Assembly (NCBI GenBank): GCA_963840555.1
Contig: CAWIZK010000003.1
Location: forward strand, 11,779-75,778
Direction of reading: 5' to 3'
DNA from: an uncultured Acidobacteriaceae bacterium
GTDB lineage: Bacteria > Acidobacteriota > Terriglobia > Terriglobales > Acidobacteriaceae
DNA length: 64,000 bases
Shown: positions 1-28,885 of the stretch, in pieces
Position numbering within the stretch: the first letter of the stretch is position 1
Layout: the number at the start of each line of letters is the position of its first letter
Position numbers and translations under genes: made by a program
Notes under the pieces: generated by a model
What the model was told of the DNA's origin: nothing
What the model saw: only the letters and a program-made list of their open reading frames with translations
Database searches by the model: none

Positions 1-360
1 CACCGCCTCCTCCAGTGCCTTGCGTGTAGCGGGATGGACCCGGGCACCAGCCAAGAAAGGTTCGAATGACTGCTGCGATACGTTCGCCAAGCGCTTAATC
101 TGACGGGCAAAATCGCGCACATGAGGGATTTTGCTGTAGCGGTCCAGGAACATGGTCGCAAGATACGTCATGCTATAAGCGTTCCCGAGACCTTCGCCCA
201 TAATTTTGAGCTTCGCATCCGACGGAGCATCCTTAACGGCCTTCGCAAGCGGGCTGAGAAATCCGAGCTGCAGATATGGTGGAATCGGCCAATCAACCTC
301 CTTGAAGGCGTTAGCCAGCCATTCCGCAAACTCTCTGTTGGTTGAAGCGTTGCTTGACAT
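1..360 (-). CDS. hypothetical protein (N-terminal 120 codons; gene continues past left edge)
   Basis: Absent from the ORF track because it is truncated. Reverse-strand ATG at 358-360, open to position 1 (MSSNASTNREFAEWLANAFKEVDW...). The ATG lies 2 nt after the TAA stop (363-365) of the upstream gene, suggesting translational coupling. Confidence 0.5.
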   Translation of the reverse strand, partial: MSSNASTNREFAEWLANAFKEVDWPIPPYLQLGFLSPLAKAVKDAPSDAKLKIMGEGLGNAYSMTYLATMFLDRYSKIPHVRDFARQIKRLANVSQQSFEPFLAGARVHPATRKALEEAV

Positions 361-362
361 GA

Positions 363-1283
363 TTATTTTTTTAGCCACGGCAAGGTCGCTGTCTGATAAT
401 CGCTGAATTCCCGAACAAATCGCTCCGCCCATGCAGCCGCCTGGGCGACGGCAGCTTCTAGTGCGTCGTCCTTATACTCGATCTTGTGCCAGTGCTTATG
501 CTTTGCGTAAGTATCCTCAAACATCCAGGTAGCACCTTTGCCTTCTTCTTGCAGGACTGTGGTCACGCATTCAGCATCTTTAGCTACATGCGGAATTTCA
601 TAAAGATGGCCGGAAGGCTCTGAATTCTCGATGACGATAAACCTGGATGAGAGCGCATACCGCATCACCTTTTGCACAACGCCTTCGCCAACCCTATCAG
701 GCTGCTCTTTGATGATGTAGGTGTAATAGCCAAGTTCCTGCAGCTTTGATTCAATCCTCTTCAGCCTGTCGAGCGCCGGGCCAGTATCTTTGCCAAGAAT
801 AAGAACAGAGTCGGAGTTTTCAAGGATGGCATCGGCGCGCTGCCACACCAGATCAAACGCAGCCTTTATCGAGCTAATCAGCTCCTCGGGCGGAGTTGCC
901 AGCGGTAGTTGCAACTTCCATCTAACAAAAATATGAACGTCCTCGGCATCGCGGGAAGGGTCTGAGAGCGGATGTCCTTCGTGCATCAGGCGCGTAACCG
1001 CACGCTCCATCGCTTCGGAGAAGGCATAGGCGGAAAATTTGTGCTCCCAGTATTTGGTATAGAGATGCTCTTCGATTTCGCAGGCAAGGACATCGCCCTC
1101 ACGGCGGAGTGTCGTGCCCGGGAAATAATTGTCGATTACCCGGATCGCTACGTCATCGGGCATGGCTGCGAGATCGAGCGCCTTCAGCGCTTCGATACTT
1201 ATCGGATCGCCGTCTTCATGCCGGAACTCCTCCCAGCCGCCTTCGGGGTCGTTAACTTCGTGGCCTTCATGGTCTTCTGACAT
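363..1283 (-). CDS. hypothetical protein, acidic N-terminus, Rossmann-like beta/alpha C-terminal region
   Basis: ORF track 363..1298 starts at a TTG. The ATG at 1283 is preceded by GGAGAGG (1290-1296). The C-terminal segment VLILGKD...RFIVIENSEPSGHLYE alternates hydrophobic strands and helices. No family recognised with certainty. Confidence 0.6.
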   Translation of the reverse strand: MSEDHEGHEVNDPEGGWEEFRHEDGDPISIEALKALDLAAMPDDVAIRVIDNYFPGTTLRREGDVLACEIEEHLYTKYWEHKFSAYAFSEAMERAVTRLMHEGHPLSDPSRDAEDVHIFVRWKLQLPLATPPEELISSIKAAFDLVWQRADAILENSDSVLILGKDTGPALDRLKRIESKLQELGYYTYIIKEQPDRVGEGVVQKVMRYALSSRFIVIENSEPSGHLYEIPHVAKDAECVTTVLQEEGKGATWMFEDTYAKHKHWHKIEYKDDALEAAVAQAAAWAERFVREFSDYQTATLPWLKK

Positions 1284-1367
1284 GCGTGGCCTCTCCAATG
1301 ACCGTCGTAGTGATCCAAGCAGTTTAGCGGATAGATGGCAACCGTTCGTGTGGTCGCGCCGCTGAGG

Positions 1368-1417
1368 GCCATAAAAGAGGTTATGGGGTCGGGGTCCGAG
1401 CCCCTCCTCTTTTGGAA
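1368..1417. repeat. copy 1 of a ~50-bp degenerate direct repeat with palindromic core CCATAA-AAGAGG-TTATGG
   Basis: ccataaaagaggttatggg is shared exactly with 2206-2224, with collinear partial identity continuing to ttggaat. It also forms a hairpin AAAAGAGG...CCTCTTTT, which could terminate the upstream minus-strand ICMT gene. Confidence 0.6.
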
Positions 1418-1473
1418 TTGATGTGTCTGATAAATTTTGTTATCGGACACGCCTCGGGAAGAGGAGCAACGGA

Positions 1474-2040
1474 TCACAGATATCTTCTTACCCGACGGCT
1501 GTACTGTGTGTATTGCTCACCATAGTGCTTTCGCAAATAGTCTTCTTCACGCAAAACCTGACGGTTCAAGAGCCAGAAACCGCTGACGACATAAAGCAAG
1601 AATATCCAAGTCGGGAAAATCAGGAATTGGCCAATGAGGATAAAGCCGAACGCCACATATATCGGATTACGGCTGTAGGAAAAGATCCCGTCTGTTACAA
1701 GCTTGTCTGCGTGTTGCGCATCTATGCCGACCCGAAAGCTTTTTCCAAAGGAAATGAGGCTCGACAACAATAATGAGAGCCCCGCGAGGCAGAATGCCAC
1801 GCCGAGCCACTCGGTGATTGCAGAATAAAAAAGCTTCTTTGTACTCACCGTGGGGAGACCAAATGCTGCTGCGAACACGAGGTAAAAGTAAAATAGGGCA
1901 AAGGGCGGAATCAGAAAGTCCGTTTTGTCCGTTTCCCCGAATCTCATGGCTGCGATTCCTTGCCTTTTCAGGAGCAGGAGCCGGGCCACAACCATACCGA
2001 CCATCAGAACAATCGTCAGAGCGGCAAAATATCGGGGCAT
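1474..2040 (-). CDS. isoprenylcysteine carboxyl methyltransferase (ICMT)/phospholipid methyltransferase family membrane protein
   Basis: 188 aa, multi-TM. Motifs YSRNPIYVAFGFILIG and EEDYLRKHYGEQYTQY are typical of the ICMT/PEMT family. ATG at 2038-2040. Confidence 0.8.
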   Translation of the reverse strand: MPRYFAALTIVLMVGMVVARLLLLKRQGIAAMRFGETDKTDFLIPPFALFYFYLVFAAAFGLPTVSTKKLFYSAITEWLGVAFCLAGLSLLLSSLISFGKSFRVGIDAQHADKLVTDGIFSYSRNPIYVAFGFILIGQFLIFPTWIFLLYVVSGFWLLNRQVLREEDYLRKHYGEQYTQYSRRVRRYL

Positions 2041-2205
2041 GGGGAGTTCCGGGAAAATGCGACTTTAGCGTCTTAGGGCCCCTCGACGCAATGCAGAATA
2101 GCGCTTCGTGACCGTCTCGCTTGTTGGATTCAAGTGAATTGTCGCACCCCTGAGAACAAACAATTGTTAAAGAATCTAAACCATCTTGACGCTGGAGGCT
2201 TGCGA

Positions 2206-2256
2206 CCCATAAAAGAGGTTATGGGTTGTGATCCGGCTGAACGGTGCCCATTGGAA
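2206..2256. repeat. copy 2 of the ~50-bp degenerate direct repeat (palindromic core CCATAA-AAGAGG-TTATGG)
   Basis: Same 19-nt core as 1368-1386, same orientation. Lies between the cas1 terminators and the ICMT gene start. Confidence 0.6.
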
Positions 2257-2272
2257 TCATTCCAAAAATGCG

Positions 2273-2334
2273 GTAGTGGGCTGTTTTGAAACAGCCCGCT
2301 ACCAAAAATGCACGCGGCTTGCTTTTGCCGCGTG
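2273..2334 (-). terminator. two tandem intrinsic terminators downstream of cas1
   Basis: Hairpins CACGCGGC-N8-GCCGCGTG (2311-2334) and GTAGTGGGCTGTTT-N-AAACAGCCCGCTAC (2273-2302). On the minus strand each is followed by GCATTTTTGG. Confidence 0.6.
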
Positions 2335-2339
2335 GTTTG

Positions 2340-3905
2340 TCAGGCGAGATGTTCTTTCGAGACTCTGACAAGTTGCGCTAACGCCTTCCAGTGCATCGGG
2401 TGCGGCACGTGTTGACCTTTACGCACTTTTGCTGCATAGGGCTCGGATACGCTGAGCCTCTGCGCCAGAACGGGCACGGTCACGGAAGCAAGTCGAGGAA
2501 GGATCAGCGTGCGGTAGCTGGATTGAGTGAGCCAAGTCGGAAGACTCGACGGCAGCCACCCTGATCGTGCCTCCCGCTGTCGTTTCTGCGAAGCCGACAT
2601 CCGCGTCCTCGATTCAGGCGTCTTTGCTGCGATCCGGCCTCTCTGAGCGACTTCGATCATGTTAGCCTTCGAAATGCTGACTCCGCACTGTGCACAGTGA
2701 TTCCTCTGATTGCTGCTGAGCACGACTCCGCAGTCTCGGCAGACTTTCTGCGGACGAGGGACAAGAACACTTGACGGCACCGCGTTCCCCTTCGCTCCTC
2801 TCCGGTGCGCTTGCGTAAGCCGCGTTGGAAACTTACCGGCAGTGTTCGACTTGGAGGTGGTACACCACAAGGCTCGTGCGACGTACTCGGCCCAGGGTGC
2901 AACCAATCTCCCCCAAATAGGTGCAGTCTCGCTCAACTTGGCGCACATCCCGGACATGAGCCTGCAATTGCCATTCGCACTCTCGAAGAAATCGGCCCTG
3001 CGTAGGGGTTCCCGAGCGATCCACGTTAGCAGCCAGCTCTCGATTTGCGGGCGCACTGGTTCGAGAACATCAAAAGCGAGGGAATCCCGGTTGGAGGTGT
3101 CCGTGTGCAGACCTAATCCCAAGCCCGGATCGAGCCCTAATTCCCCAAGGGCCAATCGGGTTTCCGATTCGAGAAGCGCGAAGCAGAAATTGAGAATGGC
3201 GTGGAACGGCGTTATGGCGAGACGCGGGCCGCCCGATAGCGGCGACTGCCTTGTGCCGACCGTACGCCAGTGTTCGGGTACGCGACGCACGTCCGCCTTG
3301 GGCCAGAGCACACGAACATCCCGCAGTGTGCCGAAATATGCGATTGCGGCGTGACTCTCCACTGTTCTTAGCCGTTCGATTGTGTCGACCTTGGGCAGTT
3401 CGCAAGTTCGGATGCCAGCGATCACGTCCGCCGCACCGGAATCCGTCAATTGTTCGCGTATGACGCGCTCCTGCCCCTCCAGCTTGGCGTTTATAAGTTC
3501 ACGCGAGATCCTCAGGCCTGTGCCGTTCTGCCACGCCAGAGCTTGCGCACGCCTCAGCCGAGCATCGGATGAGGAGGGGGGACCAGTGACCAACTGAATC
3601 TTGCCGAGACGGTCCAAAAGAACGAACGATGCGCCAACGTCGCTCAACCACTTCAGCGCGGAGAGGGTGACGAAGCCATCATCGGCAATGCAGACGAGGC
3701 GTTTCAGGCTGTGTCCTATCCTTGGCAGTCGGGCCTGGCGGCGATCCGCACCGAGGCCATCTTCGAAAATCAGGTGACCACGATCGACGTTTATCTTTAT
3801 GCCGTATCCGCAGAGAGTGACAACATTATGTCGCGGCATTATCAGCAATGGGGATCCGGAATTGCCGGATGGCGGACGTTGAGATACGTTTTTCGTAGCT
3901 GTCAT
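2340..3905 (-). CDS. cas1: Cas1-family integrase homologue (casposase-like), with C-terminal Zn-ribbon and HTH extension
   Basis: 521 aa. Cas1-like succession: N-terminal beta domain (LVCIADDGFVTLSALKWLSDVGASFVLLDRLGK), helical catalytic domain with VESHAAIAYF (Glu), ITPFHAILNFCFALLE, GLDPGLGLGLHTD (His) and SLAFDVLEPVRP (Asp/Glu). Tail has CRDCG...CAQCG plus an HTH-like end. ATG with AGGAGAA upstream. No cas2 or CRISPR array nearby. Confidence 0.85.
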   Translation of the reverse strand: MTATKNVSQRPPSGNSGSPLLIMPRHNVVTLCGYGIKINVDRGHLIFEDGLGADRRQARLPRIGHSLKRLVCIADDGFVTLSALKWLSDVGASFVLLDRLGKIQLVTGPPSSSDARLRRAQALAWQNGTGLRISRELINAKLEGQERVIREQLTDSGAADVIAGIRTCELPKVDTIERLRTVESHAAIAYFGTLRDVRVLWPKADVRRVPEHWRTVGTRQSPLSGGPRLAITPFHAILNFCFALLESETRLALGELGLDPGLGLGLHTDTSNRDSLAFDVLEPVRPQIESWLLTWIAREPLRRADFFESANGNCRLMSGMCAKLSETAPIWGRLVAPWAEYVARALWCTTSKSNTAGKFPTRLTQAHRRGAKGNAVPSSVLVPRPQKVCRDCGVVLSSNQRNHCAQCGVSISKANMIEVAQRGRIAAKTPESRTRMSASQKRQREARSGWLPSSLPTWLTQSSYRTLILPRLASVTVPVLAQRLSVSEPYAAKVRKGQHVPHPMHWKALAQLVRVSKEHLA

Positions 3906-3974
3906 TGGAGTGTATTCTCCTATGTCGGTTAGGGCTTGTCGTCTGCTGATAACAGGCGGCAGGCCCGCTTTGAA

Positions 3975-4106
3975 TTAGATTTTCTTCAGATAGGCCTCAA
4001 CCGCGCGACGGAAAAGCTCGGCCATGGGCGCTCCTGTCTTGTCAGACACTTTCTTGAGCTTCGCAATCAATTCCTCCGGCAGCCAAACCGTCGTGCGCTT
4101 CTTCAT
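3975..4106 (-). CDS. ribbon-helix-helix (CopG/Arc-like) small DNA-binding protein
   Basis: 43-aa ORF below the track cutoff, translated by hand: MKKRTTVWLPEELIAKLKKVSDKTGAPMAELFRRAVEAYLKKI. This is the classic RHH pattern (beta strand, then two helices). Sits 69 nt upstream of cas1 on the same strand. Confidence 0.6.
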   Translation of the reverse strand: MKKRTTVWLPEELIAKLKKVSDKTGAPMAELFRRAVEAYLKKI

Positions 4107-4122
4107 TCTTCAAGTCTAATAC

Positions 4123-4140
4123 GTATGTCAATGTATGTCA
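4123..4140. promoter_or_regulatory. tandem direct repeat GTATGTCA-AT-GTATGTCA (candidate operator)
   Basis: Two identical 8-mers with 10-bp periodicity, immediately upstream of the RHH gene start (4106) and overlapping the stop of the 4138..4620 gene. Confidence 0.35.
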
Positions 4141-4620
4141 CTTGATTTGTTCGCCTTTTAGCCGTTTCTGTTCATCATTCCAAATGCGCTGAACTTTCCG
4201 TGGGCTGACACCAAACTTCTGAGATACGCGGCTATAGGCGAATGTCTGCTTCACGCCTTGGGCCTTATGATGCGCAACCTCAGCGCAGATTTTCTGGTCT
4301 TCATTGGGTGTTGATGTGCGTGGACGACCGCCGGGGTCGTGCGGAAGCTGTTTCAACACACCCGGCGCGGATTGCCTGACCGCGTAGACCAATTTAGGCA
4401 GCAACTGCAGGGTGTGCTCAAACGCGACGCCTTCGGCTTCGGGTAGTTGCCGTAACATTTCTCGGGCTGTTTCCCTATCACGAAGCGCTGAAAGTTTGGC
4501 TAAGAGGCCGGCAAGCCAAGGATAGAAGGCTTGGACAGCCTCCTGAAAGTTGCTGGGACCCAACGGCCTGATGGCACAATCCAGCGCTTCGAAGTACCGG
4601 TCTATCTCTTGGTCCGTCAT
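4138..4620 (-). CDS. hypothetical protein with C-terminal helix-turn-helix
   Basis: 160 aa, ATG at 4618-4620. The C-terminus QTFAYSRVSQKFGVSPRKVQRIWN resembles a resolvase/psq-type HTH. First gene of the minus-strand HTH-RHH-cas1 string. Confidence 0.6.
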   Translation of the reverse strand: MTDQEIDRYFEALDCAIRPLGPSNFQEAVQAFYPWLAGLLAKLSALRDRETAREMLRQLPEAEGVAFEHTLQLLPKLVYAVRQSAPGVLKQLPHDPGGRPRTSTPNEDQKICAEVAHHKAQGVKQTFAYSRVSQKFGVSPRKVQRIWNDEQKRLKGEQIK

Positions 4621-4745
4621 TGCGCCAAAAGCCCCCTACCCAGTTTTGGCATGGCCTGAAGCCAAAAGGGTACCCGAATTGTTGTGGCACCCTGCCTCCG
4701 CGACGATGTATGAGACCAGTTTTGAGGTCGACCGAGGGTTGTCAA

Positions 4746-5266
4746 ATGCGGCGTCGCAAGTCCATTTCGAGCCACAAACAGGTTGCGCAGACCCGCAGTG
4801 GTGCGCTTGCCTCCTCCGACCGGGCGTTTGAAGCCAAGCAAAGGGCCTTTCACGCCATTGCCAGAATGCGCAGTGGGGGCTCTCACTCACTGCTGCGGCA
4901 CGCGAGGAGGGCACAAAGGCCACCACGGTCAAGAAATACCTCCCCGCGGCCTTACGCCAGTCCAGACGCGGTACATGGACGGCTACGAAGGGAGATCGCT
5001 ACATCAGGACTGTGGTTCTGCCCAGTGCGCACGGCCACGTGACGGTCCAGGCACGGGGCTCCGCCGAAGCGGAACTGGCAGCTGCCTATTCTGCCGCCCT
5101 GGCTCGATGGGCACGCACCGGCAAACCAACCGAATTAGCTCCGTTTCGCGGGAAAAAGGTTGGCGGGTTTGAACTCCTGACAGCTCCTCGGGCCCTCTCA
5201 GCGTTGGGTGACGCCGGCCTGTTGCAACTCGATTCGCTTTACGCGTCCTTGAAGGACGCTGCATGA
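4746..5266 (+). pseudogene. HTH-domain protein interrupted by a frameshift at a G5 run (4875-4879)
   Basis: Frame 0 gives MRRRKSISSHKQVAQ...AFEAKQRAFHAIARMRSGG. A -1 step then gives LSLTAAAREEGTKATTVKKYLPAALRQSRRGTWTATKGDRYIRTVVLPSAHGHVTVQARGS...LKDAA. Together they read as one coherent protein. The stop overlaps the next ATG (ATGA at 5263-5266). Confidence 0.5.
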
Positions 5267-5592
5267 AGAACCTCCACCCACTCCGGGCTGAGCGCAGGCG
5301 GCAGAAGAGGGTCGTTGACCCGCCAAAGATGCGCTGCATTTTTTGTCTGGAGTTGGAGCATGTCGCAGGAGGCAATCACGACTTCCTGCTGACGTTTCCC
5401 GACATCTGCCAAAAGCACCACGATGTACTAACCGAGGCGCGGCGGAATGGCGATATCAACATGGTATTTGAGCGCGACCCGGTCAAACGTGTGGCACTGG
5501 CGCTGAAGTCTGCCTCTGTATTTCTGCGCATGTTGGCCGATGCGATGTGGCGCTGGGCGGCTCGATTAGAAGATGAGAGGAGTCCAGAATGA
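5263..5592 (+). CDS. small Cys/His-rich protein, possible HNH-type nuclease
   Basis: 109 aa. CIFCLELEHVAGGNHDFLLTFPDICQKHHDV fits a CxxC...(E)H...N...CxxHH layout. Start and stop both overlap neighbours in ATGA. Confidence 0.45.
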   Translation: MKNLHPLRAERRRQKRVVDPPKMRCIFCLELEHVAGGNHDFLLTFPDICQKHHDVLTEARRNGDINMVFERDPVKRVALALKSASVFLRMLADAMWRWAARLEDERSPE

Positions 5593-6437
5593 AGAAGAAC
5601 AAGAAACCTGGCGAAATAATTTCGCGAAGTATCCCTGGCGAAGTCTTGGGGCCATTACCCTTGCCGCCCGAACTAGCGACCCTGTCCGACCATTGGAGGG
5701 AGCTTACCTATGACCAGAGGATCGCCTACGTAAAGGGTCGCCCTCTGCAAGAACGCCTCCTGCTGCTCAAGAGCGTCGGTGGCGTCTGCAAAAACGCCAT
5801 CCAGGTTGTGTGCGAGTTCCGGCCGATCATCGAAGTATGCCGCGACGAATTCAGGCAGCCCGGACAGCGCGTCCCGGTCGAGGGCAAGCCCACTTGGACG
5901 AAGTTCATTCCAGAAACGTTTGGTTTCAGCCCGCGGCGCATGCAGCAGTTGCTCGCGGACGGCAACCCGGATGGCGGTCGGCGCGAGAAATCGCCTAGAC
6001 AAGCCCACGAAGCGAAACGCGGGCCAAAGACAGGCCCGGAGGAGGACTATCACCGGCTGCTAAAGGTCGAAGCTCTGGCAGTCGACCTGGCCAGGAGCGT
6101 GGTCGAGCAGGGTGACGCTGAGCGATATCCGGAGGCTGACGAGATCTTGAAAATCACCGGGTCGGAAGCGAACGCACAACCTTCCAGGTCGTGCACTTTA
6201 GCAAGCAGTCGCATCGCCGAGCCCGGCGATACCGAGGAAGAGGGGCAGATCACCGGTATCAAGATTGGGCCGCAGCCAGATTGCTATATCTGCGGGACCG
6301 GCCTTCATACTTGTGCCCTCCATGCACCCCAACTCGAAGCGTTGATGTTCCAACGCGGTATCGAAGACCATGACGCCTCGGACATTCTGCTGCAGCAGTT
6401 TGCCAAGCAGGGACACAGATTCTTGAAAACAGCTTGA
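5589..6437 (+). CDS. hypothetical protein
   Basis: 282 aa. GAGAGGAG upstream of the ATG, ATGA overlap with the upstream gene. No family recognised. Cys/His cluster near the C-terminus (CYICGTGLHTCALH). Confidence 0.55.
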   Translation: MKKNKKPGEIISRSIPGEVLGPLPLPPELATLSDHWRELTYDQRIAYVKGRPLQERLLLLKSVGGVCKNAIQVVCEFRPIIEVCRDEFRQPGQRVPVEGKPTWTKFIPETFGFSPRRMQQLLADGNPDGGRREKSPRQAHEAKRGPKTGPEEDYHRLLKVEALAVDLARSVVEQGDAERYPEADEILKITGSEANAQPSRSCTLASSRIAEPGDTEEEGQITGIKIGPQPDCYICGTGLHTCALHAPQLEALMFQRGIEDHDASDILLQQFAKQGHRFLKTA

Positions 6438-6485
6438 CCCCCGCTGGCGGTTCGCAAACATATTGCACAAAGGAGAGGAGACACG

Positions 6486-6704
6486 ATGAGCAAATGTAAC
6501 GAGCACGATGTCATGTGTGCCTTCGTTGCCACGACTTACAGAATGGCGTGGAAGGTCTGGAAAGAACACAACGGTAACCCGTCAGAAGCCGCACTTGAAC
6601 AATTGGAGATTCACGGGGATTGGCCTCGCGGGATGGCAGCCCGCGTTATGCAACGAATTAAAGGGGATTCGCAGCTGCGTGCCGAGCTTGAGCGCTGGTC
6701 GTAA
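6486..6704 (+). CDS. hypothetical small protein
   Basis: 72 aa. Strong SD (AAAGGAGAGGAG) upstream of the ATG. The stop lies 2 nt before the polB ATG. Confidence 0.55.
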   Translation: MSKCNEHDVMCAFVATTYRMAWKVWKEHNGNPSEAALEQLEIHGDWPRGMAARVMQRIKGDSQLRAELERWS

Positions 6705-6706
6705 GC

Positions 6707-9652
6707 ATGACGAACCAAAGCGGAGGCCGGACCGACACGCCGTTAGGCAAGGAGGTATTTCTCCGCAGCCACGTTGTCGAGGTGGACGCAAAGCACCCGC
6801 CAGCCAGTTCTTACGCCGAACCCAAATGGCCCGAGTACGCGCTTGTCTTCGATACCGAGACAACACTGGACCCTAGAGAGCAAGCGCTGCTCTTTGGTTT
6901 CTATCGCGTTTGCCGATTACAGGGAGACAGTTATCAATGCGTCGAAGAAGGGGTTCTTTACCCTGACGACCTGTCACCTAAACACATGACGCTCATCAAG
7001 CGTTACGTCAGGAATTCCAAATCGGAGGTTGTAAGCAGCGACTACGACGAAAGCATCCACCTGTACAGCCGGTCGGAATTCGCGGAGAAGGTGTTTTTCA
7101 ACGCTGTCAGAACGCGATCATTAATTGTTGCGTTCAACGCCCCTTGGGACATTTCGCGGTTATCGATTGACTACAAAACTGCCCGTAACCGCGCATGGTC
7201 GCTTGTCCTAGCGCAGCGGGTTTCGCGGAAGACGGGGCAAGTGGAAGCCAATCCGGAACGCCCACGGGTTCGGGTCACGTCAAAGGACTCTAAATCCGCC
7301 TTCTTCAGCCTGAGCAAGCCAATAAGGCCTGACGAATGGCCAACGTACATGGTTGGATCCAAGAGTCGCCTGGTTTTTCGGGTCCTGGATCTGCGCACCC
7401 TGGGATGGGCCTTATTCAATGAGAGTTATTCCCTGAAGGCCATTTGCAAAGCCACGAAGACCAAAAACCAAAAGCTGGACCATGAGCCCACAGGTACCGT
7501 GAGAGTTGACGAACTGGACTATTGCCGACACGACGTGCGCTGCACCGTTGACGCCCTGAATTCGCTAAAAGAGGAATTCGACAGACACCCAATCGATCTG
7601 CATCCGGACAAGGCAGTTTCGCCCGCGAGTGTCGGTAAGGCATATCTCCGAGCAATGGGCATTACTGCCCCTAAGAAGAAGTTCGACGTGCCAGATGAAA
7701 TTTATGGAATCGCTTCGCAGGCATATTTTGGCGGTCGTTCCGAAATCCGAATCCGCAAAACTCCCGTTCCCGTCGTTCTAACGGACTTCTCCAGCCAATA
7801 CCCGACGATAAATTCGCTGCTCGGTAACCCTGAAGTATTGATCGCCGAAAGCGTTTCGTTTGAAGACGCAACCGATGAGGTTCAGAAATTCATATCAGGC
7901 ATCACGTTGGAGGATTGTTTTCAGCAAAACACCTGGAAACAAATGAAATTCTTCGCGCGCATCCGTCCCGACGGCGACGTTCTCCCGGTGCGTGCGGAGT
8001 ACAACGAGGACGGCGTTACAAAGAACATTGGCATAAATTACTTCACGTCGAGCGAGCCGGTCTGGATCAGTGGCCCGGATCTGATCGCTTCGAAATTGCT
8101 GTCTGGCAAAACTCCACGGATTGAAAAAGCATTTCGCATGGTGCCGCACGGCCGGCAAAAGGGCCTTAAGCCGACAAATCTTCGCGGAATGGTCGGAGTT
8201 GATCCACGAAAAGATGATCTTTTCCGGGCCATGGTCGAGCAAAAATCGGTGTACAAATCCTCCAATGAAGCACTCTCGTATTTTCTGAAGATTGCCGCAA
8301 ATTCAACAAGTTACGGAATGTTTTTGGAGTTGACGCCGCAGAAGAAATTCAACCCGGTCAAAGTAAAAGTATTTTCTGGCGAACACAGCCACGAGCAACC
8401 GGTTAGCACCATCGAAAAACCGGGTGAGTGGTATTTTCCGCCAATTGCAGGCCTGATTACGGGCGGAGCGCACTTGCTGTTGGCGATGATCGAGCGCTGC
8501 ATAACCGATAAAGGCGGTCACTACTTGTTTTGCGATACCGATTCAATGTGCATTGTGGCCTCGAAGAAAGGTGGTTGGGTTCAATGTCCGAACGAGCCTC
8601 GTATTAAAGCGCTTTCGTGGAAGGATGTCGAACAAATTTCCGCGCGATTTGAGTCGCTCAATTGCTACGACCGGACAAAAGTGCGCGGATCGATTTTGAA
8701 AATTGAAAAAGTGAATTTCGACACCGATAAAAATCAAATTGAATTGTTCGGATACGCCATTAGTGCGAAAAGATATGCCCTGTACCGCTACAAAAAGAAT
8801 GGTGACATTGAAATCGTTGACGCAAAGGCTCACGGACTGGGATACCTCTATCCGCCGAAGGATTCCGTCAACGGGGACGAGGCGGAAAACGATTGGGTTT
8901 TCGAAACGTGGCGTTGGCTGTTGGAAGGCGAAGTTACAAAACCGACGACCACTCCAACCTGGTTTTCCATTCCTGCAATGATGCAAATAACCGTAAGCAC
9001 GCCAGCGGTTCTCGGAAATCTGAAGGGGTTCACCAGGCCTTTTAATTTTATTCACGTTCCCCTACTTTTCCCGAGCTCCTATCCCACAGGTAAGACTCCG
9101 TCGAACTTCAGCCTCATGATGCCTTTTTCAACCCATCGCGACCGATGGCTTAGGGCAGAAGCAATCGAGGTTCATAGCGGAGAACAATACCCAATCACGC
9201 TGCTGGATCCCAAGCGACGCACAAAGAAAATCGAGGTCAAGTGCTACGGGAATGTGCTCGGTGCGTATCGCGAGCACCCAGAAGCCAAATTCCTTGGGCA
9301 CGACGGTAAGTCATGTGTCAGCGATACACGTGGGCTGTTAAGGCGAAGCCACATCATTGCGGATCGTCATCGCTACATCGGAAAGGAAACGTCGCGTCGA
9401 TGGGAACAAGGCGAAGACCTGAGCATGGTCGACTTCCGATGTGTGGAATACGCCCGCGGAAAAATGAGCGCCAGTGACGAAATCAGAAAACGAATGATTG
9501 AAATTGGGATTCGGGAGGTCGCCCGGCGCAGCGGGGTCAATAGGGAAACCGTGGCGCTTATCACAAGAGGTCAACCAGTCAAAGCCGTAACCCTCCGAAG
9601 AGTAGTGGGAGCGCTTTCGGAGTCGCGCTGGGCGCGCGATAGTGGACCCTAG
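6707..9652 (+). CDS. polB: family B DNA polymerase with 3'-5' exonuclease domain and C-terminal HTH
   Basis: 981 aa. Exo I ALVFDTETT, Exo II VAFNAPWDISRL, Exo III YCRHDVRCT. Pol motif A LTDFSSQYPT, motif B KIAANSTSYG, motif C LFCDTDS, KxY ISAKRYALY. C-terminal IGIREVARRSGVNRETVALITRG looks like an HTH. Confidence 0.85.
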   Translation: MTNQSGGRTDTPLGKEVFLRSHVVEVDAKHPPASSYAEPKWPEYALVFDTETTLDPREQALLFGFYRVCRLQGDSYQCVEEGVLYPDDLSPKHMTLIKRYVRNSKSEVVSSDYDESIHLYSRSEFAEKVFFNAVRTRSLIVAFNAPWDISRLSIDYKTARNRAWSLVLAQRVSRKTGQVEANPERPRVRVTSKDSKSAFFSLSKPIRPDEWPTYMVGSKSRLVFRVLDLRTLGWALFNESYSLKAICKATKTKNQKLDHEPTGTVRVDELDYCRHDVRCTVDALNSLKEEFDRHPIDLHPDKAVSPASVGKAYLRAMGITAPKKKFDVPDEIYGIASQAYFGGRSEIRIRKTPVPVVLTDFSSQYPTINSLLGNPEVLIAESVSFEDATDEVQKFISGITLEDCFQQNTWKQMKFFARIRPDGDVLPVRAEYNEDGVTKNIGINYFTSSEPVWISGPDLIASKLLSGKTPRIEKAFRMVPHGRQKGLKPTNLRGMVGVDPRKDDLFRAMVEQKSVYKSSNEALSYFLKIAANSTSYGMFLELTPQKKFNPVKVKVFSGEHSHEQPVSTIEKPGEWYFPPIAGLITGGAHLLLAMIERCITDKGGHYLFCDTDSMCIVASKKGGWVQCPNEPRIKALSWKDVEQISARFESLNCYDRTKVRGSILKIEKVNFDTDKNQIELFGYAISAKRYALYRYKKNGDIEIVDAKAHGLGYLYPPKDSVNGDEAENDWVFETWRWLLEGEVTKPTTTPTWFSIPAMMQITVSTPAVLGNLKGFTRPFNFIHVPLLFPSSYPTGKTPSNFSLMMPFSTHRDRWLRAEAIEVHSGEQYPITLLDPKRRTKKIEVKCYGNVLGAYREHPEAKFLGHDGKSCVSDTRGLLRRSHIIADRHRYIGKETSRRWEQGEDLSMVDFRCVEYARGKMSASDEIRKRMIEIGIREVARRSGVNRETVALITRGQPVKAVTLRRVVGALSESRWARDSGP

Positions 9653-9684
9653 CTCCATTCGGCGTTCCGTTTTGGGTACAGGTT

Positions 9685-10347
9685 ATGCAGGACGACAATT
9701 CCGATCAACCCATCGGAATTTTAGCTTGCTGGCAGAAGATTCGGTTATCATCACTCGCCATGAAAATTCTAGTTAGCGATTATGGGTCGGGCCTGCAAGT
9801 TTGGGCTGATTTTCGCCGTGACGGCCTCGCATTTATTTCTGAAGTCAAATCGGTATCTACGCTTCCAAAAGTGACCGCGACACTATTACTGCGTTGGAGC
9901 GAAGTATTTGTAATGTTCTTGGTAGTCGGAATTGCTGATATCGCGGTGGCGTATCGACACGCGATTATAGGTTCGTGGCTGATATCACACTGGGCTGTTC
10001 AAAATGCAACGAAAGCGGCGACAGCGATTGCCCTTCTCGCCTTCGCGCTCGGATTGCTATTGGCCCTATGGAAACGAAGGCAGTTATTCACATACAGCAT
10101 CTGGGAAGTCGTTTTTGGAGCTTTTTCGGCCTTTCAATTAGGGCTGCTTTTGTTCCCAGCAGTGGAGATGTCTAAACTTGTTGGACTCGCATCCGCGTTG
10201 TACGTGGTATCAAGGGGAGGAGGAAATCTGGCCGATGCACTTGAAAAGGAGACCGAAATAGAGCGTCTGAAACTGGAAATGGTCAGAGGTGCTCCTCGTG
10301 AACCGTGGCCACCATCAATTCTTCCAAGATCTGAATCCACAACCTGA
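9685..10347 (+). CDS. hypothetical integral membrane protein
   Basis: 220 aa with about 4 hydrophobic spans (VFVMFLVVGIADIAVAY, AIALLAFALGLLLALW, VVFGAFSAFQLGLLLF, LVGLASALYVV) and a charged coiled C-terminus. Start uncertain. Confidence 0.5.
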   Translation: MQDDNSDQPIGILACWQKIRLSSLAMKILVSDYGSGLQVWADFRRDGLAFISEVKSVSTLPKVTATLLLRWSEVFVMFLVVGIADIAVAYRHAIIGSWLISHWAVQNATKAATAIALLAFALGLLLALWKRRQLFTYSIWEVVFGAFSAFQLGLLLFPAVEMSKLVGLASALYVVSRGGGNLADALEKETEIERLKLEMVRGAPREPWPPSILPRSESTT

Positions 10348-10433
10348 TCGTACAGTTGCCGTTCGACCCGGTCCCGCTAGCTCCAGGAACCGCACGAGGA
10401 AACGTGATCGGCAGCCGTTCGAGCCGAGGACAC

Positions 10434-11648
10434 CTAACGTTTCTTAGCTGCTGTCTCCGGATATCCGGGCGCAAAGAATTGGAAGTGTGTGCAATAGTTG
10501 CAAACAAAAGGTACTAGCCGGATTGACCCAACTTGCCTATGAAGTTGGTCAAATCTCTGCACTTCCAAGGCTTCCGATCCGGCAATTAGTTGGGGTCGAT
10601 AAGTACCTTTTCCGCATATCTGGCAGCGTCGTGGTAGATCTAAAAGCTGTCCTCCTTGATGTATTAGCCCAAGAACTTCATCTATTACCAGCAATAGCTC
10701 GGTGGCGTTCTCTAAGCAACGCAATTGCTCTTCGACTACGCAACGGTCGAGAATTCTGTTGATAAAGGCCATCTCAACGCTATCTGGAAACAGGCGCTCC
10801 AGGTCATTCTCTGGCTTATGGTGATACTCCCTGAGCAGCTTTAGTCGGCCTGCGACCATACACCACAACAGTTTCCCAAGCATATAAACATCAAAATCTG
10901 GCTTAACATCGTCTAACCGTTCGGCGATCGGCGCCCACGGGGGCATGTAGTCACGAGGCCCCACCTTTTCCTGCGTCAGTGTTATGCGATCTCCGTCGTC
11001 TGGCGAGTAGACAATTCCAAAGTCGCCCAGAACGAATGCCTCTTCACCCTGAGGAAATACATTGGCAGGTTTGATGTCGCGGTGGACAATTCCGTCGCTG
11101 TGTAGAGAAGCGACAGCTTGCACCAGAGAACGGAACACCGTGAGGGCCGCTAATGCTCTCCCGCGGAATTGCGTAATTTGCTTCTCCAGCGAACCTTGCG
11201 GAAAGTATTCGGTTATGATCCATCGCTCGTCTTCATTCCATTCCAAAAGCCTCAGGAGACCGGACCTGCCTTGGTTCAGCACTTTGATCTCACGCTTGAA
11301 GCGAGAAACAGCCAAGTCACCAGCCCCTCCTGCCGGAATCTTGAATTGTTTCAAGGCACCGAGTTCCGAAGGGTCATCATCACGAGCCGATTTTCTTATG
11401 GCGCGGGCGAAGAGTAGTGCATGTTCACTTTGACTCGGAAAATTGACGGTTCCACGCCTGACTTGAAAATCCAAGATCTCCGAAACGCTCTTATCGATTT
11501 CCGCTTGGCGTATCGGACTCCGAACCAACCACACTTCACTTTGACCGCCGCTCCCAAGAGGGAGGCCAAGTCTTGTCCAGTTAGAGATGTTTTCCATGGT
11601 TGCAAGAAGTGTACGACAGTCGGGGGGGGCCAGCTTTTCGGCCTCCAA
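10434..11648 (-). CDS. Ser/Thr protein kinase with C-terminal Zn-ribbon
   Basis: G-loop LGSGGQSEVW, catalytic loop HRDIKPANVF, GDFG. C-terminal CQICGKGTYRP...CNYCTHF. The track start is a TTG at 11648; an alternative ATG is at 11597. Confidence 0.75.
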   Translation of the reverse strand: MEAEKLAPPDCRTLLATMENISNWTRLGLPLGSGGQSEVWLVRSPIRQAEIDKSVSEILDFQVRRGTVNFPSQSEHALLFARAIRKSARDDDPSELGALKQFKIPAGGAGDLAVSRFKREIKVLNQGRSGLLRLLEWNEDERWIITEYFPQGSLEKQITQFRGRALAALTVFRSLVQAVASLHSDGIVHRDIKPANVFPQGEEAFVLGDFGIVYSPDDGDRITLTQEKVGPRDYMPPWAPIAERLDDVKPDFDVYMLGKLLWCMVAGRLKLLREYHHKPENDLERLFPDSVEMAFINRILDRCVVEEQLRCLENATELLLVIDEVLGLIHQGGQLLDLPRRCQICGKGTYRPQLIAGSEALEVQRFDQLHRQVGSIRLVPFVCNYCTHFQFFAPGYPETAAKKR

Positions 11649-11934
11649 TAGCTAGGCTCCGGTATGCACGACTCCAGTTGTCCATACCAGAAATAAAATC
11701 AGCACCGCCCGTTTACGTCTCCCGCTCCCCCACGCCGGAGCTCCTCGCGCTAACTTGATGGGGACGCATGCCGGTCACGGTTCCGTTTTCCATCACGGTT
11801 CCTATCTCGAACCCACATACCTCGTACATTTACCGTGTAGTACCCAAAACCCAAGTGGCTGGATTTTCCCGCCCCTATAGCTATCCCCCGCATTCAGTTG
11901 ACCCGCCGTTGGGAGCGGCCTAACATTACCGCCA

Positions 11935-14367
11935 ATGGACGTAGCCGCCGACAGTTTGGTCGGGCAGACCGTGTCCCATTACCGAATACTTTCCAAGCTC
12001 GGTGGTGGGGGCATGGGTGCTGTCTACGAAGCGGAAGACACCCGCCTTGGCCGGCACGTCGCGCTCAAGTTTGTCCCGCCGGAAATGGTGCACGACCGGA
12101 AGGCGCTCGACCGGTTTTTCTGGGAGGCACGGGCGGCTTCGCAACTGAACCATCCGGGAATCTGCACCATCCACGACATTGAAGACGCCGATGGGCACCC
12201 CTTCATTGTTATGGAACGTCTGGAAGGCGTCAGCCTGAAAGAACGCATGATGGGCGGGCCGATGGAGCTGGACGACATCCTCGACGTCGGTATCCAGGTT
12301 TCGGACGCGCTGGCGGCTTGTCACGCCAAAGGCATCATTCATCGCGACATCAAGCCAGCGAACATCTTCCTCACCAATAGCGGTCAAGTGAAGGTGCTCG
12401 ACTTCGGCGTGGCCAAGCTCGCGCCCGGAGTTCGCAGCGACAACGCGCTGGACGATCCGCTGACCATGGCGGGCGATATTTTCGGCACGGCCGTGTACAT
12501 GTCGCCGGAGCAGGCCCGAGGTGAAGAACTGGATGCTCGCACCGACCTGTTTTCGATGGGAGTGGTGCTGTACCAGATGGCGACGGGCCAACGGCCCTTC
12601 ACAGGCACCAATGCGGTGACCACGATGTCGGCGATCATGACCCAGAAGCCGCTCTCGCCGCTCAAGCTGAACCCCAAGCTCCCTCCCGAACTTGAGGGCA
12701 TCATCGGTCGAGCGATGGAGAAAGACCGGGGCCAGCGCTATCCCGACGCCCTGGCCCTGAAGGGCGACTTGCAGTCGCTGAAGCGCGAAACCGAGCCGGG
12801 CATGACCGACACCGCACGCATGCGGCCGCTGCTGCCCTACCGGATTTCGAGCAGCACATTTCAGAGCACGAGCCGCAAGCCGCTCTACATTTTGCTGGGT
12901 GTGATCGCGCTGTTGATCACATTGCTGATTCCCATGGGCGCGTGGTTCTTCAAGCAGCGATCCAACGTACACGCGCGTACAAGCATCGCGGTGCTGCCAT
13001 TGCAAAATATGAATGGCGACGTCGGCGCCGATTTCCTGCGCTTCGCACTGGCCGACGAGTTGGCCAATGCCCTCACGAATACCCGCACCCTGGACGTGCG
13101 TCCGTTCATGATGTCGCGAAAGTACGTTGGCAACGACGTCGATCCGCGCCAGGCCGCTGCTGATCTTCGCGTGGGGACGATCGTAACTGGTCACTTCCTG
13201 CAGCAGGGCGACAACCTCATGGTCACGCTCGAAGCCATGGATGGCGCGAGCGAGAAGCTGGTATGGCAGGCGAATGTAACCGGACCGGCCACCGATCTGA
13301 TTGGGTTGCAAGCTGCGATGAACAACAAGGTCACGCAGGGACTGCTGCCCGCGATTGGCATGGCCGGAGCGCAATCGGAAGGGGGGACGCATCCACACGA
13401 TGCAGCGGCCTATGACCTCTACTTGCATAGCCTGGCGCTGTCGCGCGATCCAGGTCCGAACAAAGACGCCATCGCAGTACTGGAGCACGCCGTCTCCGCC
13501 GATCCCAACTATGCTCCCGCGTGGGAGGAGTTGGGTCTTCGCTATTACTACGATTCCAGCTATTCAACAGGCGGCGAAGAGATGTTCCAGAAATCGACGC
13601 AGGCGTTTGAGAGAGCGGTTTCGCTCGATCCTAACCGCATCGTCGCCGCCGGCCAGATCATTGTTAATCATGTAGAGCGTGGCGAGCTGGGCAAGGCGTA
13701 TGAATTCGCGCAGGCACTGGTGAAACGCGCGCCGAACAGCGCCCAGTCCCACTTTGTTATGGGCTACGTTTATCGCTATGCCGGCATGCTCGGGCCTGCC
13801 ATGCAGGAATGCGACAAGGCGCTCGCGCTCGACCCCGGCAATTACACGTTCCGCTCTTGTACATGGGCCTTCATGGAAATGGGCAACACCAAGAGGGCAG
13901 CGGACTTCATCAAGCTGGACAACGGTTCGGAATGGGCGGCATATGCTACGCCATCGCTGCTGCTGCGCGAAGGCAAGATCGATGAAGCCCGCGAGGCCGT
14001 TAAGAAAATGGACAGCACCGCACGTCATCAACGCGTTCTGCTCGAAGCTTGCCTGGGCGTGAGACCGTACTCTGAGGCTCAGCAGATGGCGCATGACGCT
14101 GAGACCACCACTCCTGCGTTGCCCGACGCCGAACTCATCTACTATGCGGGCGCGATCTATGCCGATTGCGGACTCAAGCCGGCCGCGATGGTGATGTTGC
14201 AGCACGCTATTGAGCAGAACTACTGCTCGTATTCCAACCTGCAAAATGATCCCATGCTGCGCAAGATCCGCGGCACGTCGGGATTCGACAAACTTCTGCA
14301 ATCCGCCAAGGATTGCCAGCAATCAAACCTGCCGGCCATGAATACGAACGATGTCCAGGCGCCGTAA
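11935..14367 (+). CDS. membrane Ser/Thr protein kinase with periplasmic TPR region
   Basis: 810 aa. GGGGMGAVYEA, HRDIKPANIF, DFG, one TM (LYILLGVIALLITLLIPMGAWFF), C-terminal TPR-like repeats. Confidence 0.85.
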   Translation: MDVAADSLVGQTVSHYRILSKLGGGGMGAVYEAEDTRLGRHVALKFVPPEMVHDRKALDRFFWEARAASQLNHPGICTIHDIEDADGHPFIVMERLEGVSLKERMMGGPMELDDILDVGIQVSDALAACHAKGIIHRDIKPANIFLTNSGQVKVLDFGVAKLAPGVRSDNALDDPLTMAGDIFGTAVYMSPEQARGEELDARTDLFSMGVVLYQMATGQRPFTGTNAVTTMSAIMTQKPLSPLKLNPKLPPELEGIIGRAMEKDRGQRYPDALALKGDLQSLKRETEPGMTDTARMRPLLPYRISSSTFQSTSRKPLYILLGVIALLITLLIPMGAWFFKQRSNVHARTSIAVLPLQNMNGDVGADFLRFALADELANALTNTRTLDVRPFMMSRKYVGNDVDPRQAAADLRVGTIVTGHFLQQGDNLMVTLEAMDGASEKLVWQANVTGPATDLIGLQAAMNNKVTQGLLPAIGMAGAQSEGGTHPHDAAAYDLYLHSLALSRDPGPNKDAIAVLEHAVSADPNYAPAWEELGLRYYYDSSYSTGGEEMFQKSTQAFERAVSLDPNRIVAAGQIIVNHVERGELGKAYEFAQALVKRAPNSAQSHFVMGYVYRYAGMLGPAMQECDKALALDPGNYTFRSCTWAFMEMGNTKRAADFIKLDNGSEWAAYATPSLLLREGKIDEAREAVKKMDSTARHQRVLLEACLGVRPYSEAQQMAHDAETTTPALPDAELIYYAGAIYADCGLKPAAMVMLQHAIEQNYCSYSNLQNDPMLRKIRGTSGFDKLLQSAKDCQQSNLPAMNTNDVQAP

Positions 14368-14458
14368 CAGGTTTTCCATTGCAGTCGGACGCGGCTGCGG
14401 TATACTGCGGCGACCTCATGCCAGAGCTCAGCTATGCTCGCGGGATTTCGGTCCCGCT

Positions 14459-27621: not shown

Positions 27622-28885
27622 ATGCATTTCGCCACCCGCGTGACGAAACTCCACGCGCAAAACGCCAACCGACTGTCGGACTCGGCAAAATTCCTCGCAG
27701 CCTTCTCGCTCTTGCTGTCGTGCTTGGCGCTCTACGGCCAGCAGGCGCCTCCAGCAAAGCAGGCCCAGCCCACGCCACAAGACGATCAAGCGGTCACCAC
27801 CATCAAGAAAGACGTCAACGTCGTCAACGTGCTGGCCACGGTGCGCAACAAGCAGGGCCAGATTGTCTCCACCCTCACCAAAGAAGACTTCAAGCTGGAA
27901 GTGGACGGCAAGCCCCAAACCATCCGTTACTTCTCTCGTGTTACCGACACTCCACTCACTCTGGGTCTCCTTGTTGACACCAGCCTCAGCCAGCGCCGCC
28001 TGCTCGATAAGGAGCGCAGCGCCAGCTATACGTTCCTGAACGACTTGCTCAACGAGTCTCGAGACAAAGCCTTCATTATCCACTTCGATTTTGACATTGA
28101 GCTGTTGCAAGACCTGACCAGCTCGCGGCCTAAGCTCCAGGCCGCTCTCCAGAAGATCGAGTCCCCCGAGCCCCAGCAGATGAATACCAGCGGCGGACAG
28201 GGTGGAGGGCAGGGCGGCGGCGGCCGGGGCGGCGGCACCAAACTCTACGATGCCATCTTCCTCGCTTGCGACGAAATTACCTCCAAACAGAGCGGCCGTA
28301 AGGCCATCATCATTCTTTCCGACGGAGTCGATCAGGGCAGCAAGGTCGGCATGATACGCGCCATCGAATCCGCTCAGCGAGCGAATACCCTCGTCTACAC
28401 CATCCTCTTCGCCGATCCCGGTGCCTATAACAACATGGCCGGAGGACACCCCGGCGGCCATGGCGGAGGAGGCGGCGGCTATCCCGGCGGAGGCTACCCG
28501 GGTGGTGGTGGCTATCCCGGCGGCCGCAGATATCCCGGCGGAGGTGGCTACCCGGGTGGCGGCGGTGGCGGATACCCCGGCGGCGGGCAGGGTGGCGGCG
28601 GCAATCGCGGCGGCGGCGGGGCCTCTCCTCACGAAGACGGCAAGCACGTCATGGAGATGCTCGCCCAGCAGACCGGACGCGCGCTTTTTCGAGGTCACGA
28701 AGAAAGAGTCGATCGACGACATCTACAAGACCATCGGCGAGGAACTTCGCAACCAGTACAATCTGGGCTTCACTCCCGAGCAGGCCGAGGTCGAGGGCGA
28801 CTTCCACAAAATCAACGTCACCACCACCCAAAAAGACATGACGGTCCAGTCCCGCGAAGGCTACTACTCCGGCAAGCAGCCGTAG
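27622..28885 (+). pseudogene. VWFA-related secreted protein with Gly/Tyr/Pro low-complexity insert; reading frame broken near 28680-28690
   Basis: Signal peptide. VNVLATVRNKQGQIVSTLTKEDFKLEVDGKPQTIRYF and LGLLVDTSLSQ are typical of the acidobacterial VWFA-related family. The C-terminus FFEVTKKESIDDIYKTIGEELRNQYNLGFTP... continues in another frame after MLAQQTGRA (one extra base in the cgcgcgc run). Confidence 0.7.

Follow-up and report, generated by a model that had tools for sequence, protein, structure and literature searches.

Is a Cas1 protein that carries a long C-terminal DNA-binding extension the adaptation integrase of a CRISPR system or the casposase of a mobile element? The question is raised by a gene on the minus strand at positions 2340–3905 of a 64,000-nucleotide stretch of DNA from an uncultured Acidobacteriaceae bacterium (GenBank assembly GCA_963840555.1, contig CAWIZK010000003.1, positions 11,779 to 75,778; this whole stretch is hereinafter the window), for which an earlier note made from the sequence alone had pointed to the casposases. 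Casposons are self-synthesizing DNA transposons that have been proposed as the ancestors of the CRISPR adaptation machinery, and a few dozen of them have been described. We find that the window gene very probably codes for the casposase of a bacterial family-3-type casposon, present as a copy of at least 11.9 kb in an acidobacterial-type chromosome. What appear to be new here are the abundance of such elements in Acidobacteriota and the duplication of a putative −35 box (TTGAC) at all nine mapped junctions.

The Cas1 core and its C-terminal extension

The gene and the regions of its product are as follows:

2340..3905, minus strand: casposase gene, a single open reading frame (ORF) of 521 aa with a Cas1 core, a Zn-ribbon and a helix-turn-helix (HTH) domain
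2856..3824, minus strand: Cas1 core, about residues 28–350, with an N-terminal β domain and an α-helical catalytic domain (AlphaFold2 secondary structure, alignment, and the invariant E183, H267, D279 and E282)
2676..2750, minus strand: Zn-ribbon, about residues 386–410, C389-x2-C392-x11-C404-x2-C407 (invariant cysteines; sub-threshold Pfam matches; short β strands in the AlphaFold2 model with low predicted local distance difference test scores, pLDDT)
2361..2618, minus strand: helical HTH domain, about residues 430–515 (HTH_31 matches; AlphaFold2 helices with pLDDT 72–91)

The Cas1 homologue proposed in the earlier note is real: it is encoded by one minus-strand ORF, which contains all the motifs quoted there, namely ESHAA, HAILNFCFALL, GLGLHTD, AFDVLEPVRP and VPVLAQRLSVSEPYAAKVRKG. 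The Pfam family Cas_Cas1 matches residues 33–318 with E=1.2e-30, while a profile of the casposase family recovers the casposase structure 6OPM with E=6.7e-29 as against 1.6e-23 for the Cas1 of A. fulgidus. The AlphaFold2 model, built from a 50-sequence alignment (mean pLDDT 73.5), displays the β and α domains of Cas1, and its best Foldseek match is likewise 6OPM (2e-15), with CRISPR Cas1 structures coming next. In the alignment of 50 homologues E183, H267, D279 and E282 are invariant, and both these catalytic columns and the cysteine columns of the Zn-ribbon remain so in relatives of about 33% identity from Acidimicrobiia and one Gemmatimonadota metagenome-assembled genome (MAG). Profile alignment to 6OPM and to CRISPR Cas1 pairs the E183 segment ‘llEaqaavaYF’ without gaps with ‘gvEgtlagkYW’ of the M. 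mazei casposase and ‘wEGqaaiNY’ of the type I-C Cas1, and sets H267 opposite the ‘LH’ histidine and D279/E282 opposite ‘D-l-q-E-P-f-R’ (D-x-x-E-P-x-R). A pairwise alignment had placed a lysine of 6OPM opposite E183, with the glutamate off register by eight residues; we discarded this as an artefact overruled by the profile alignment. Thus, the glutamate, histidine and acidic positions picked out from the sequence coincide with the catalytic positions of Cas1 proteins and casposases. The Cas1 fold and the four catalytic residues are conserved across the family, and the conservation of these residues suggests that the protein is probably an active integrase.

An extension of about 170 aa had also been claimed, and this length is borne out, with the Cas1 core stopping near residue 350 and the Zn-ribbon and HTH regions following at about residues 386–410 and 430–515. 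More than 100 full-length homologues (505–530 aa, 55–77% identity) span about 99% of the query, extension included, and the extension is therefore a conserved part of the protein. The two cysteine pairs, CRDCG and CAQCG, are present as described, with a spacing of 11 residues between them and not the 12 given earlier. That the extension is a DNA-binding one is supported by several lines of evidence: C389, C392, C404 and C407 are invariant in the 50 homologues as well as in distant relatives from other phyla; several Zn-ribbon Pfam families match the isolated tail below threshold (E 0.007–0.06); HTH_31 matches the isolated tail with E=1e-4, weakly matches residues 474–520 in the Pfam scan of the full-length protein, and is detected in 13 of the 50 homologues (best 1.9e-5); and AlphaFold2 models residues 430–515 as a helical bundle (pLDDT 72–91). 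When the 146-aa tail was searched by itself in a set of 1.84 billion representative proteins (clusters at 50% identity), 1,395 clusters matched at E≤1e-3. A free-standing Zn-ribbon–HTH protein family was considered and rejected, as the short matches are mostly pieces of decayed casposase genes.

Polymerase linkage, element ends and target-site duplications

By definition, a casposon combines Cas1 and a family B DNA polymerase (PolB) with terminal inverted repeats (TIRs) and a target-site duplication (TSD) (Krupovic 2014, PMC4046053). The polymerase is found in the window as:

6707..9652, plus strand: divergent PolB of 981 aa with an HTH-like C-terminal tail (conserved motifs, PF03175, PHROG, Foldseek)

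The gene lies 2.8 kb from that of the casposase, as the last one of a divergently transcribed operon. Its product conserves as invariant columns the ExoI (DxE), ExoII and ExoIII motifs, motif A (DxxSxYP), motif B (Kx3NSxYG), motif C (DTDS) and KxY. Sequence matches are weak (PF03175 1.8e-4; PHROG DNA polymerase 3e-6), and searches of the PDB by sequence returned nothing with the single sequence and only E ~0.3 at motif C with the profile. The structural model, in turn, matches nothing other than PolBs in Foldseek, i.e., those of phi29 (8.6e-9), Pol alpha, Pol epsilon, herpes simplex virus (HSV), KOD and Pol delta (3IAY), and the published fold matches of family 3 casposon PolBs show this same spectrum (phi29, Pol alpha, Pol delta 3IAY, HSV). 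The last approximately 60 residues are modelled as a helical HTH-like domain (pLDDT ~85) with weak matches to a LacI-type HTH (0.008) and HTH_3 (0.089). By tblastn, about 35 of 55 related loci, distant relatives of other phyla included, have the same PolB at a distance of 2–3 kb from the Cas1 gene. The 55 loci come nearly all from MAGs of Acidobacteriota/Terriglobia, the few others being of Acidimicrobiia, Gemmatimonadota and Chloroflexia, and the family, a large one of soil bacteria, comprises over 3,000 protein matches. Many of the related copies have frameshifted or truncated genes, as is expected of a mobile element.

An inverted-repeat search in the related loci (designated below by L numbers) uncovered perfect TIRs of 221 bp in L053, 37 bp in L031, and at least 80 bp in L009, L006 and L032. 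In these five complete relatives the elements measure 11.9–15.5 kb, and each is flanked by an exact 14-bp TSD. For comparison, casposon TSDs have a median of about 15 bp, with 14 bp in the characterised elements of family 2. The TIRs start with GGGGTACTATGAC…, GGGGATAGCTATAG… or GGGTTAGGAGAC…, which can be generalized as 5′-GGG(G/T)(A/T)…. One further inverted repeat of L006, at 1323/16507, was rejected as an element end, being interior to the true terminus at 1193/16660. The corresponding features of the window are:

11862..11888, strand not assigned: PolB-side terminus, the outer part of the TIR, …GGATTTTCCCGCCCCTATAGCTATCCCC (matches the termini of L009 and L031; unique in the window)
11889..11902, plus strand: 14-bp target CGCATTCAGTTGAC, one copy of the expected TSD (by analogy with the exact 14-bp TSDs of L053, L031, L006, L032 and L009)

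Thus, the window element ends with …CTATAGCTATCCCC at 11888, directly followed by CGCATTCAGTTGAC. In the complete relatives the Cas1-side end lies 3–5.5 kb past the stop codon of the Cas1 gene, while the window holds 2.3 kb there; the element is therefore one of at least 11.9 kb that is cut by the left window edge. Its Cas1-side end is expected as GGGGATAGCTATAGGGGCGGGAAAATCC preceded by CGCATTCAGTTGAC, to the left of window position 1. Since that end is off the window, the latter contains no TIR pair, and a TIR search over positions 1–16000 and 5-kb flanks of the module gave inverted repeats at chance level only. A lower GC content across positions 1–12000 of the window fits the extent of the element.

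The occurrence of these bounds bears on the first part of our opening question. On the CRISPR reading, the protein would be an adaptation integrase whose array and other cas genes lie elsewhere or were missed, and this would accord with the Pfam Cas_Cas1 match, with the score against the generic NCBIfam cas1 model (76 bits versus a cut-off of 71.7 bits), and with the JGI label ‘CRISPR-associated endonuclease Cas1’ on its homologues. However, the 64-kb window shows no CRISPR array (nor any tRNA or Rfam family); no cas2 turned up in the ORFs around cas1, and no cas4 adjoins it; none of the subtype-specific Cas1 models comes near its own cut-off on the window protein; the linkage to PolB is constant; the elements are bounded by TIRs and TSDs; and the best match in both structure and sequence is a casposase. 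We hence regard a CRISPR-associated Cas1 as effectively refuted and its probability as minimal. The PolB neighbour, the TIRs and 14-bp TSDs of the relatives and the lack of an array in the window sustain the proposal that the extension is a casposase trait.

Several further observations pertain to the element ends. A Logan contig of 10.1 kb, with identical genes and from the same sample, stops within about 4 nt of the terminus at 11888 (at ~11884 by coordinate mapping), which would suit a branching of the assembly graph at this end of the element, owing to the TIR or to heterogeneity between occupied and empty sites. In L004 (13036/13051), L039 (16239/16257) and L031 (15389 + 14) a second casposon-type terminus (GGGGTATTACGCG… or GGGGTTATAGGGG…) occurs exactly 14 bp past the first end, which indicates that elements or remnants in tandem share one copy of the target, i.e., that the regenerated target is reused. 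L004/L001 have inverted terminal regions of more than 1.5 kb (16–1862 and 12619–14587; 98–99.7% identity) that contain the whole gene of a ~457-aa multi-pass membrane protein; a third, more diverged copy is seen at 11414–12799, and the two repeat blocks are permuted on the right side. Finally, L012 is an 11.7-kb contig that consists entirely of an element with Cas1 and PolB and has perfect 141-bp inverted ends (1–141 and 11583–11723). These ends are probably a collapsed TIR of at least 141 bp, their length being equal to the k-mer of the assembler (k141_…), with a free linear form as the less probable reading.

L012 on its face resembles a linear replicon, and together with the weak match of the PolB to PF03175 (the protein-primed type) and the phi29 DNA polymerase as top fold match, it could point to a PolB-encoding element other than a casposon proper, such as a pipolin-like element or a linear plasmid or virus that has integrated. 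Against this, the element core yielded no gene for a capsid, a terminal protein or a tyrosine/serine recombinase (nor was a tyrosine/serine recombinase or DDE transposase seen in the neighbouring genes that were scanned); the bounds are a TIR and a 14-bp TSD rather than the direct repeats of att sites; the assembler k-mer makes a collapsed TIR the more likely source of the L012 ends; and the combination of Cas1, PolB, TIR and TSD is by definition that of a casposon (PMC4046053). We accordingly consider an element of this other kind highly improbable.

The points that weigh against the window gene belonging to a family-3-type casposon are of several kinds. A single terminus is seen, with no second terminus and no second copy of CGCATTCAGTTGAC anywhere in the 64-kb window, so that this copy may or may not be intact. 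The closest homologue (75% identity, contig P0003) is found in a similar neighborhood, next to an 811-aa kinase; the window insertion could therefore be old and have been inherited vertically. The Zn-ribbon is modelled at pLDDT 43–59 and its Pfam matches are sub-threshold; such low model confidence would be what is expected of a Zn-ribbon without its metal. The HNH assignment of a 109-aa protein encoded upstream of the PolB is weak, its orthologues reaching DUF968 with 1.3e-3 and HNHc_6 with 0.014. An HTH common to the tails of Cas1 and PolB was considered and dropped, as hhalign does pair these regions but not significantly (P=0.068). The family may represent a sister family instead of family 3 itself, given that the placement is by pairwise similarity and architecture. 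Lastly, we know of no family 3 casposase among those with characterised activity.

Both the lone terminus and the neighborhood shared with the P0003 homologue, which fits vertical inheritance, would also be shown by a domesticated or immobilised remnant, in which the Cas1–PolB pair is no longer mobile and either decays or, as would the C-terminal DNA-binding module, serves a host function; many members of the family are, moreover, visibly decayed. In the window, however, the casposase and PolB ORFs are full-length and keep all catalytic motifs, and the terminus that can be seen is intact and sits right beside a canonical target, while several relatives combine perfect TIRs of at least 80 bp with perfect TSDs, which implies recent transposition in the family. 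On balance, a remnant is unlikely, if somewhat less so than the two alternatives above, and we favor a casposon whose other end lies beyond the window.

Target site, proposed mechanism and further genes

The PolB-side junction is accompanied by one more feature:

11898..11926, plus strand: σ70-like promoter TTGACC-17-TAACAT (promoter scan), with its −35 box inside the 14-bp target

A promoter scan of the junction region returned this one σ70-like promoter as against 0.1 expected, and the site lies 8 nt before the ATG (11935) of a host gene for an 810-aa Ser/Thr kinase. At nine of nine mapped junctions the 14-bp target ends in TTGAC, which is followed by C or T, a spacer of 16–17 nt and a −10-like box (TAACAT, TAAGAT, TGTAAT or TACCAT). 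The host genes found 3′ of these junctions code for Ser/Thr kinases (five cases, with three types of terminus), ValS (two), a membrane protein and, in one case, a protein of unknown function. We tentatively propose, as a possibility that we rate slightly below an even chance, that this casposon family targets σ70-type promoters of the form TTGAC[C/T]-N16-17-TAnnAT, which the casposase would recognize, presumably via its Zn-ribbon and HTH. Going by the sequence, we infer that the duplication may fall on the −35 box (TTGAC) of a functional promoter. If so, the cut would place the −35 box at the edge of the 14-bp duplication, leaving both an intact promoter and an intact target for tandem insertions. 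This would amount to a new class of casposon target and to a natural case of integration by a Cas1-family enzyme beside a promoter, akin to the leader-proximal integration of CRISPR spacers; by tying a Cas1 integrase to the transcription start region it would also bear on the origin of CRISPR leaders and repeats. In the literature searched, we found no description of acidobacterial casposons or of a promoter-like casposon target.

Two other candidate targets were discarded. The motif GATMTTACAGGC found upstream of valS in L053 is absent from the window, the common denominator being TTGAC plus the −10-like box; and a tRNA or structured RNA, as targeted by family 2, is not supported, since the insertion sites hold no tRNA and neither the window nor five loci gave a match to Rfam. 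The valS flank itself recurs in seven loci (L053, L051, L025, L029, L014, L044 and L010), where the element lies about 150–170 bp upstream of the start codon of the valyl-tRNA synthetase gene; two of these are mapped junctions, the other five show the same flank, and the host homology stops at the element boundary. The recurrence reflects a hot spot or else an old insertion that a clade has inherited. The window target starts with CGCA (11889–11892), a motif critical to the M. mazei casposase where its target begins (PMC6977970); other TSDs of the family lack CGCA, and the likeness is probably a coincidence.

A mechanism can be proposed on the model of the family 2 casposases that have been characterised, those of A. 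boonei and M. mazei. Dimers or tetramers of the casposase would bind both 3′-…CCCC-OH ends of the element and link them through transesterification to the two strands of the target, 14 bp apart, with gap repair then yielding the 14-bp duplication. The Zn-ribbon–HTH module might read the target flank and/or the element ends, the PolB would copy the element, and the small RHH/HTH proteins and the HNH-like protein listed below could act as regulators or accessory factors. Insertion at TTGAC[C/T]-N16-17-TAnnAT would duplicate TTGAC, so that the downstream gene would retain an intact promoter-like sequence.

What the present family adds is its size in Acidobacteriota, precisely mapped ends with 14-bp TSDs, and a consistent promoter-like target. 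Being bacterial and abundant, with mapped ends and a short target motif, it makes a family-3-type casposase testable in vitro and offers a clean system for asking what the Zn-ribbon–HTH extension recognizes. It also has consequences for annotation, with the casposase genes currently mislabelled as ‘CRISPR-associated endonuclease Cas1’ and the polymerases as ‘hypothetical protein’.

The remaining genes of the element are:

1..2339, strand not assigned: Cas1-side interior with cargo, a 306-aa protein of unknown function (363..1283, minus strand) and a PEMT/ICMT-like methyltransferase (1474..2040, minus strand; PEMT 1.7e-14)
3975..4106, minus strand: 43-aa ribbon-helix-helix (RHH) protein directly upstream of the casposase gene (Pfam RHH_3 3.4e-11, RHH_1 4.4e-8; gene call on the source contig)
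4138..4620, minus strand: 160-aa protein with an HTH-like C-terminus, on the same strand as the RHH and casposase genes (weak matches: DUF7769 0.0011, IS481 transposase HTH region 0.0095)
5263..5592, plus strand: 109-aa protein with a CxxC…CxxH scaffold, a candidate nuclease of the HNH (His-Me finger) type (orthologues; weak Pfam matches)
5589..6437, plus strand: 282-aa protein in the PolB operon (ORF; no family match)
6486..6704, plus strand: 72-aa protein directly upstream of PolB (ORF; 48% identical orthologue at the same place in L009)
9685..10347, plus strand: 220-aa predicted membrane protein, probable cargo (ORF; without homologue in related elements)
10434..11648, minus strand: 404-aa Ser/Thr protein kinase located between PolB and the terminus, probably cargo (Pfam Pkinase 1.9e-20)

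The 160-aa protein occupies the position of the ‘HTH protein’ slot of family 2 and 3 casposons, and the 109-aa protein, with its weak His-Me finger matches, sits in the HNH slot of those of family 3. Orthologues of the latter adjoin PolB in 13 loci and keep C25, H33, G36, C49 and H53 invariant in a CxxC…H…G…CxxHH pattern; the window protein itself gave no significant match in Pfam, nor did its profile against the PDB. It is preceded by two small genes on the plus strand (4746..5042 and 5039..5266, calls on the source contig) for products of 98 and 75 aa with no family matches, of which the Arg-rich 98-aa one may not be a real gene. The cargo kinase matches the NCBIfam model of the antiphage MADS6 kinase with 2.2e-13, far under its cut-off. 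Kinases form a recurrent theme, appearing as cargo here, as host Ser/Thr kinase genes at the target, and also in the casposon HenMar-C1. On the Cas1 side, the methyltransferase gene is flanked by an exact 19-nt direct repeat, CCATAAAAGAGGTTATGGG, at 1369–1387 and 2207–2225; each copy is itself a small hairpin (CCATAA…TTATGG), and the pair could be terminator-like hairpins or mark where a small cassette was inserted. Elsewhere in the window, imperfect 18–54-nt repeats at 28450–28620 are GGC/GGT-rich (coding for Gly-rich ‘GGYPGG’-like sequence) and are unrelated to the casposon.

Comparison with known casposons and CRISPR Cas1

The closest counterpart is AceAut-C1 of Candidatus ‘Acetothermum autotrophicum’ (fosmid AP011671), which codes for a PolB-HTH, an HNH protein, an HTH protein and Cas1-Zf (PMC4046053). 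It shares with the present elements a Cas1 whose C-terminus bears a domain that binds zinc (ZBD) plus an HTH, a PolB-HTH (with an HTH-like tail here), HNH (a candidate here) and HTH proteins, an intergenic site and TIRs. The window protein is 34% identical to the AceAut-C1 Cas1 fragment (the N-terminal 190 aa) over 180 aligned residues (E 6e-19), as compared to 21–23% identity to family 2 casposases, and its host is bacterial, as are those of family 3 casposons. The pairwise similarity and shared architecture would thus place the family in, or with, the AceAut-C1-like family 3. Differences remain: AceAut-C1 measures 20 kb, has TIRs of 602 bp and a TSD of 15 bp, and stems from a thermophile of another phylum, whereas the elements described here span 12–15.5 kb, have a 14-bp TSD and reside in Acidobacteriota; their cargo genes differ, and a promoter-like target has not been reported for AceAut-C1. 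The suggestion in the earlier note that the Zn-ribbon marks a distinct subgroup is right, though the subgroup is not new, as the Cas1-ZBD-HTH fusion already occurs in AceAut-C1 (Krupovic 2014, PMC4046053), and the Cas1–Zn-ribbon–HTH architecture is already known from this one example of 2014.

Two other bacterial elements are comparable. NitAL212-C1 of Nitrosomonas sp. AL212 has a 14-bp TSD, AGCCGGTACTGCCC, and a 36-bp TIR starting with GGGGTATGTTAAC…/GGGGTATG… (PMC4046053). It resembles the present family in the length of the TSD, in the start of the TIR (GGGGTACTATGAC…/GGGGATAGCTATAG… here), and, as far as predicted here, in coding for a PolB-HTH, an HNH protein, two HTH proteins and a Cas1 with a Zn finger and an HTH; unlike here, its Zn finger is N-terminal to Cas1 (Zf-Cas1) and its TSD, AGCCGGTACTGCCC, lacks TTGAC. 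HenMar-C1, of family 3, carries a Ser/Thr kinase (PMC4046053).

The casposases studied biochemically are those of the archaeal families 1 and 2 only (PMC8464041, PMC6977970). The family 2 enzymes of M. mazei (6OPM) and Aciduliprofundum boonei, the only casposases that are well characterised, offer the best structural and sequence match, with the same catalytic residues and a 14-bp TSD. Further likenesses are the C-terminal HTH, which is essential for integration there, a C-rich 3′ transferred end, site-specific integration that depends on the flank, and reuse of the target in tandem. For the M. mazei casposon the TSD measures 14 bp and the end that is transferred reads …TATATCCC; deprived of its HTH, the casposase is inactive, with integration abolished. 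In contrast to the present family, those of family 2 are of archaeal origin, pass from core to HTH without a Zn-ribbon, and insert at the 3′ end of tRNA genes rather than at a promoter-like site upstream of protein genes. With CRISPR Cas1 (A. fulgidus 4N06, type I-C 8D3L), finally, the window protein shares the fold, the catalytic residues and, presumably, staggered integration with duplication, there of the repeat; but CRISPR Cas1 partners with Cas2 at an array and lacks any Zn-ribbon or HTH tail, while the window protein is found without cas2 or an array, in an element that encodes its own polymerase.

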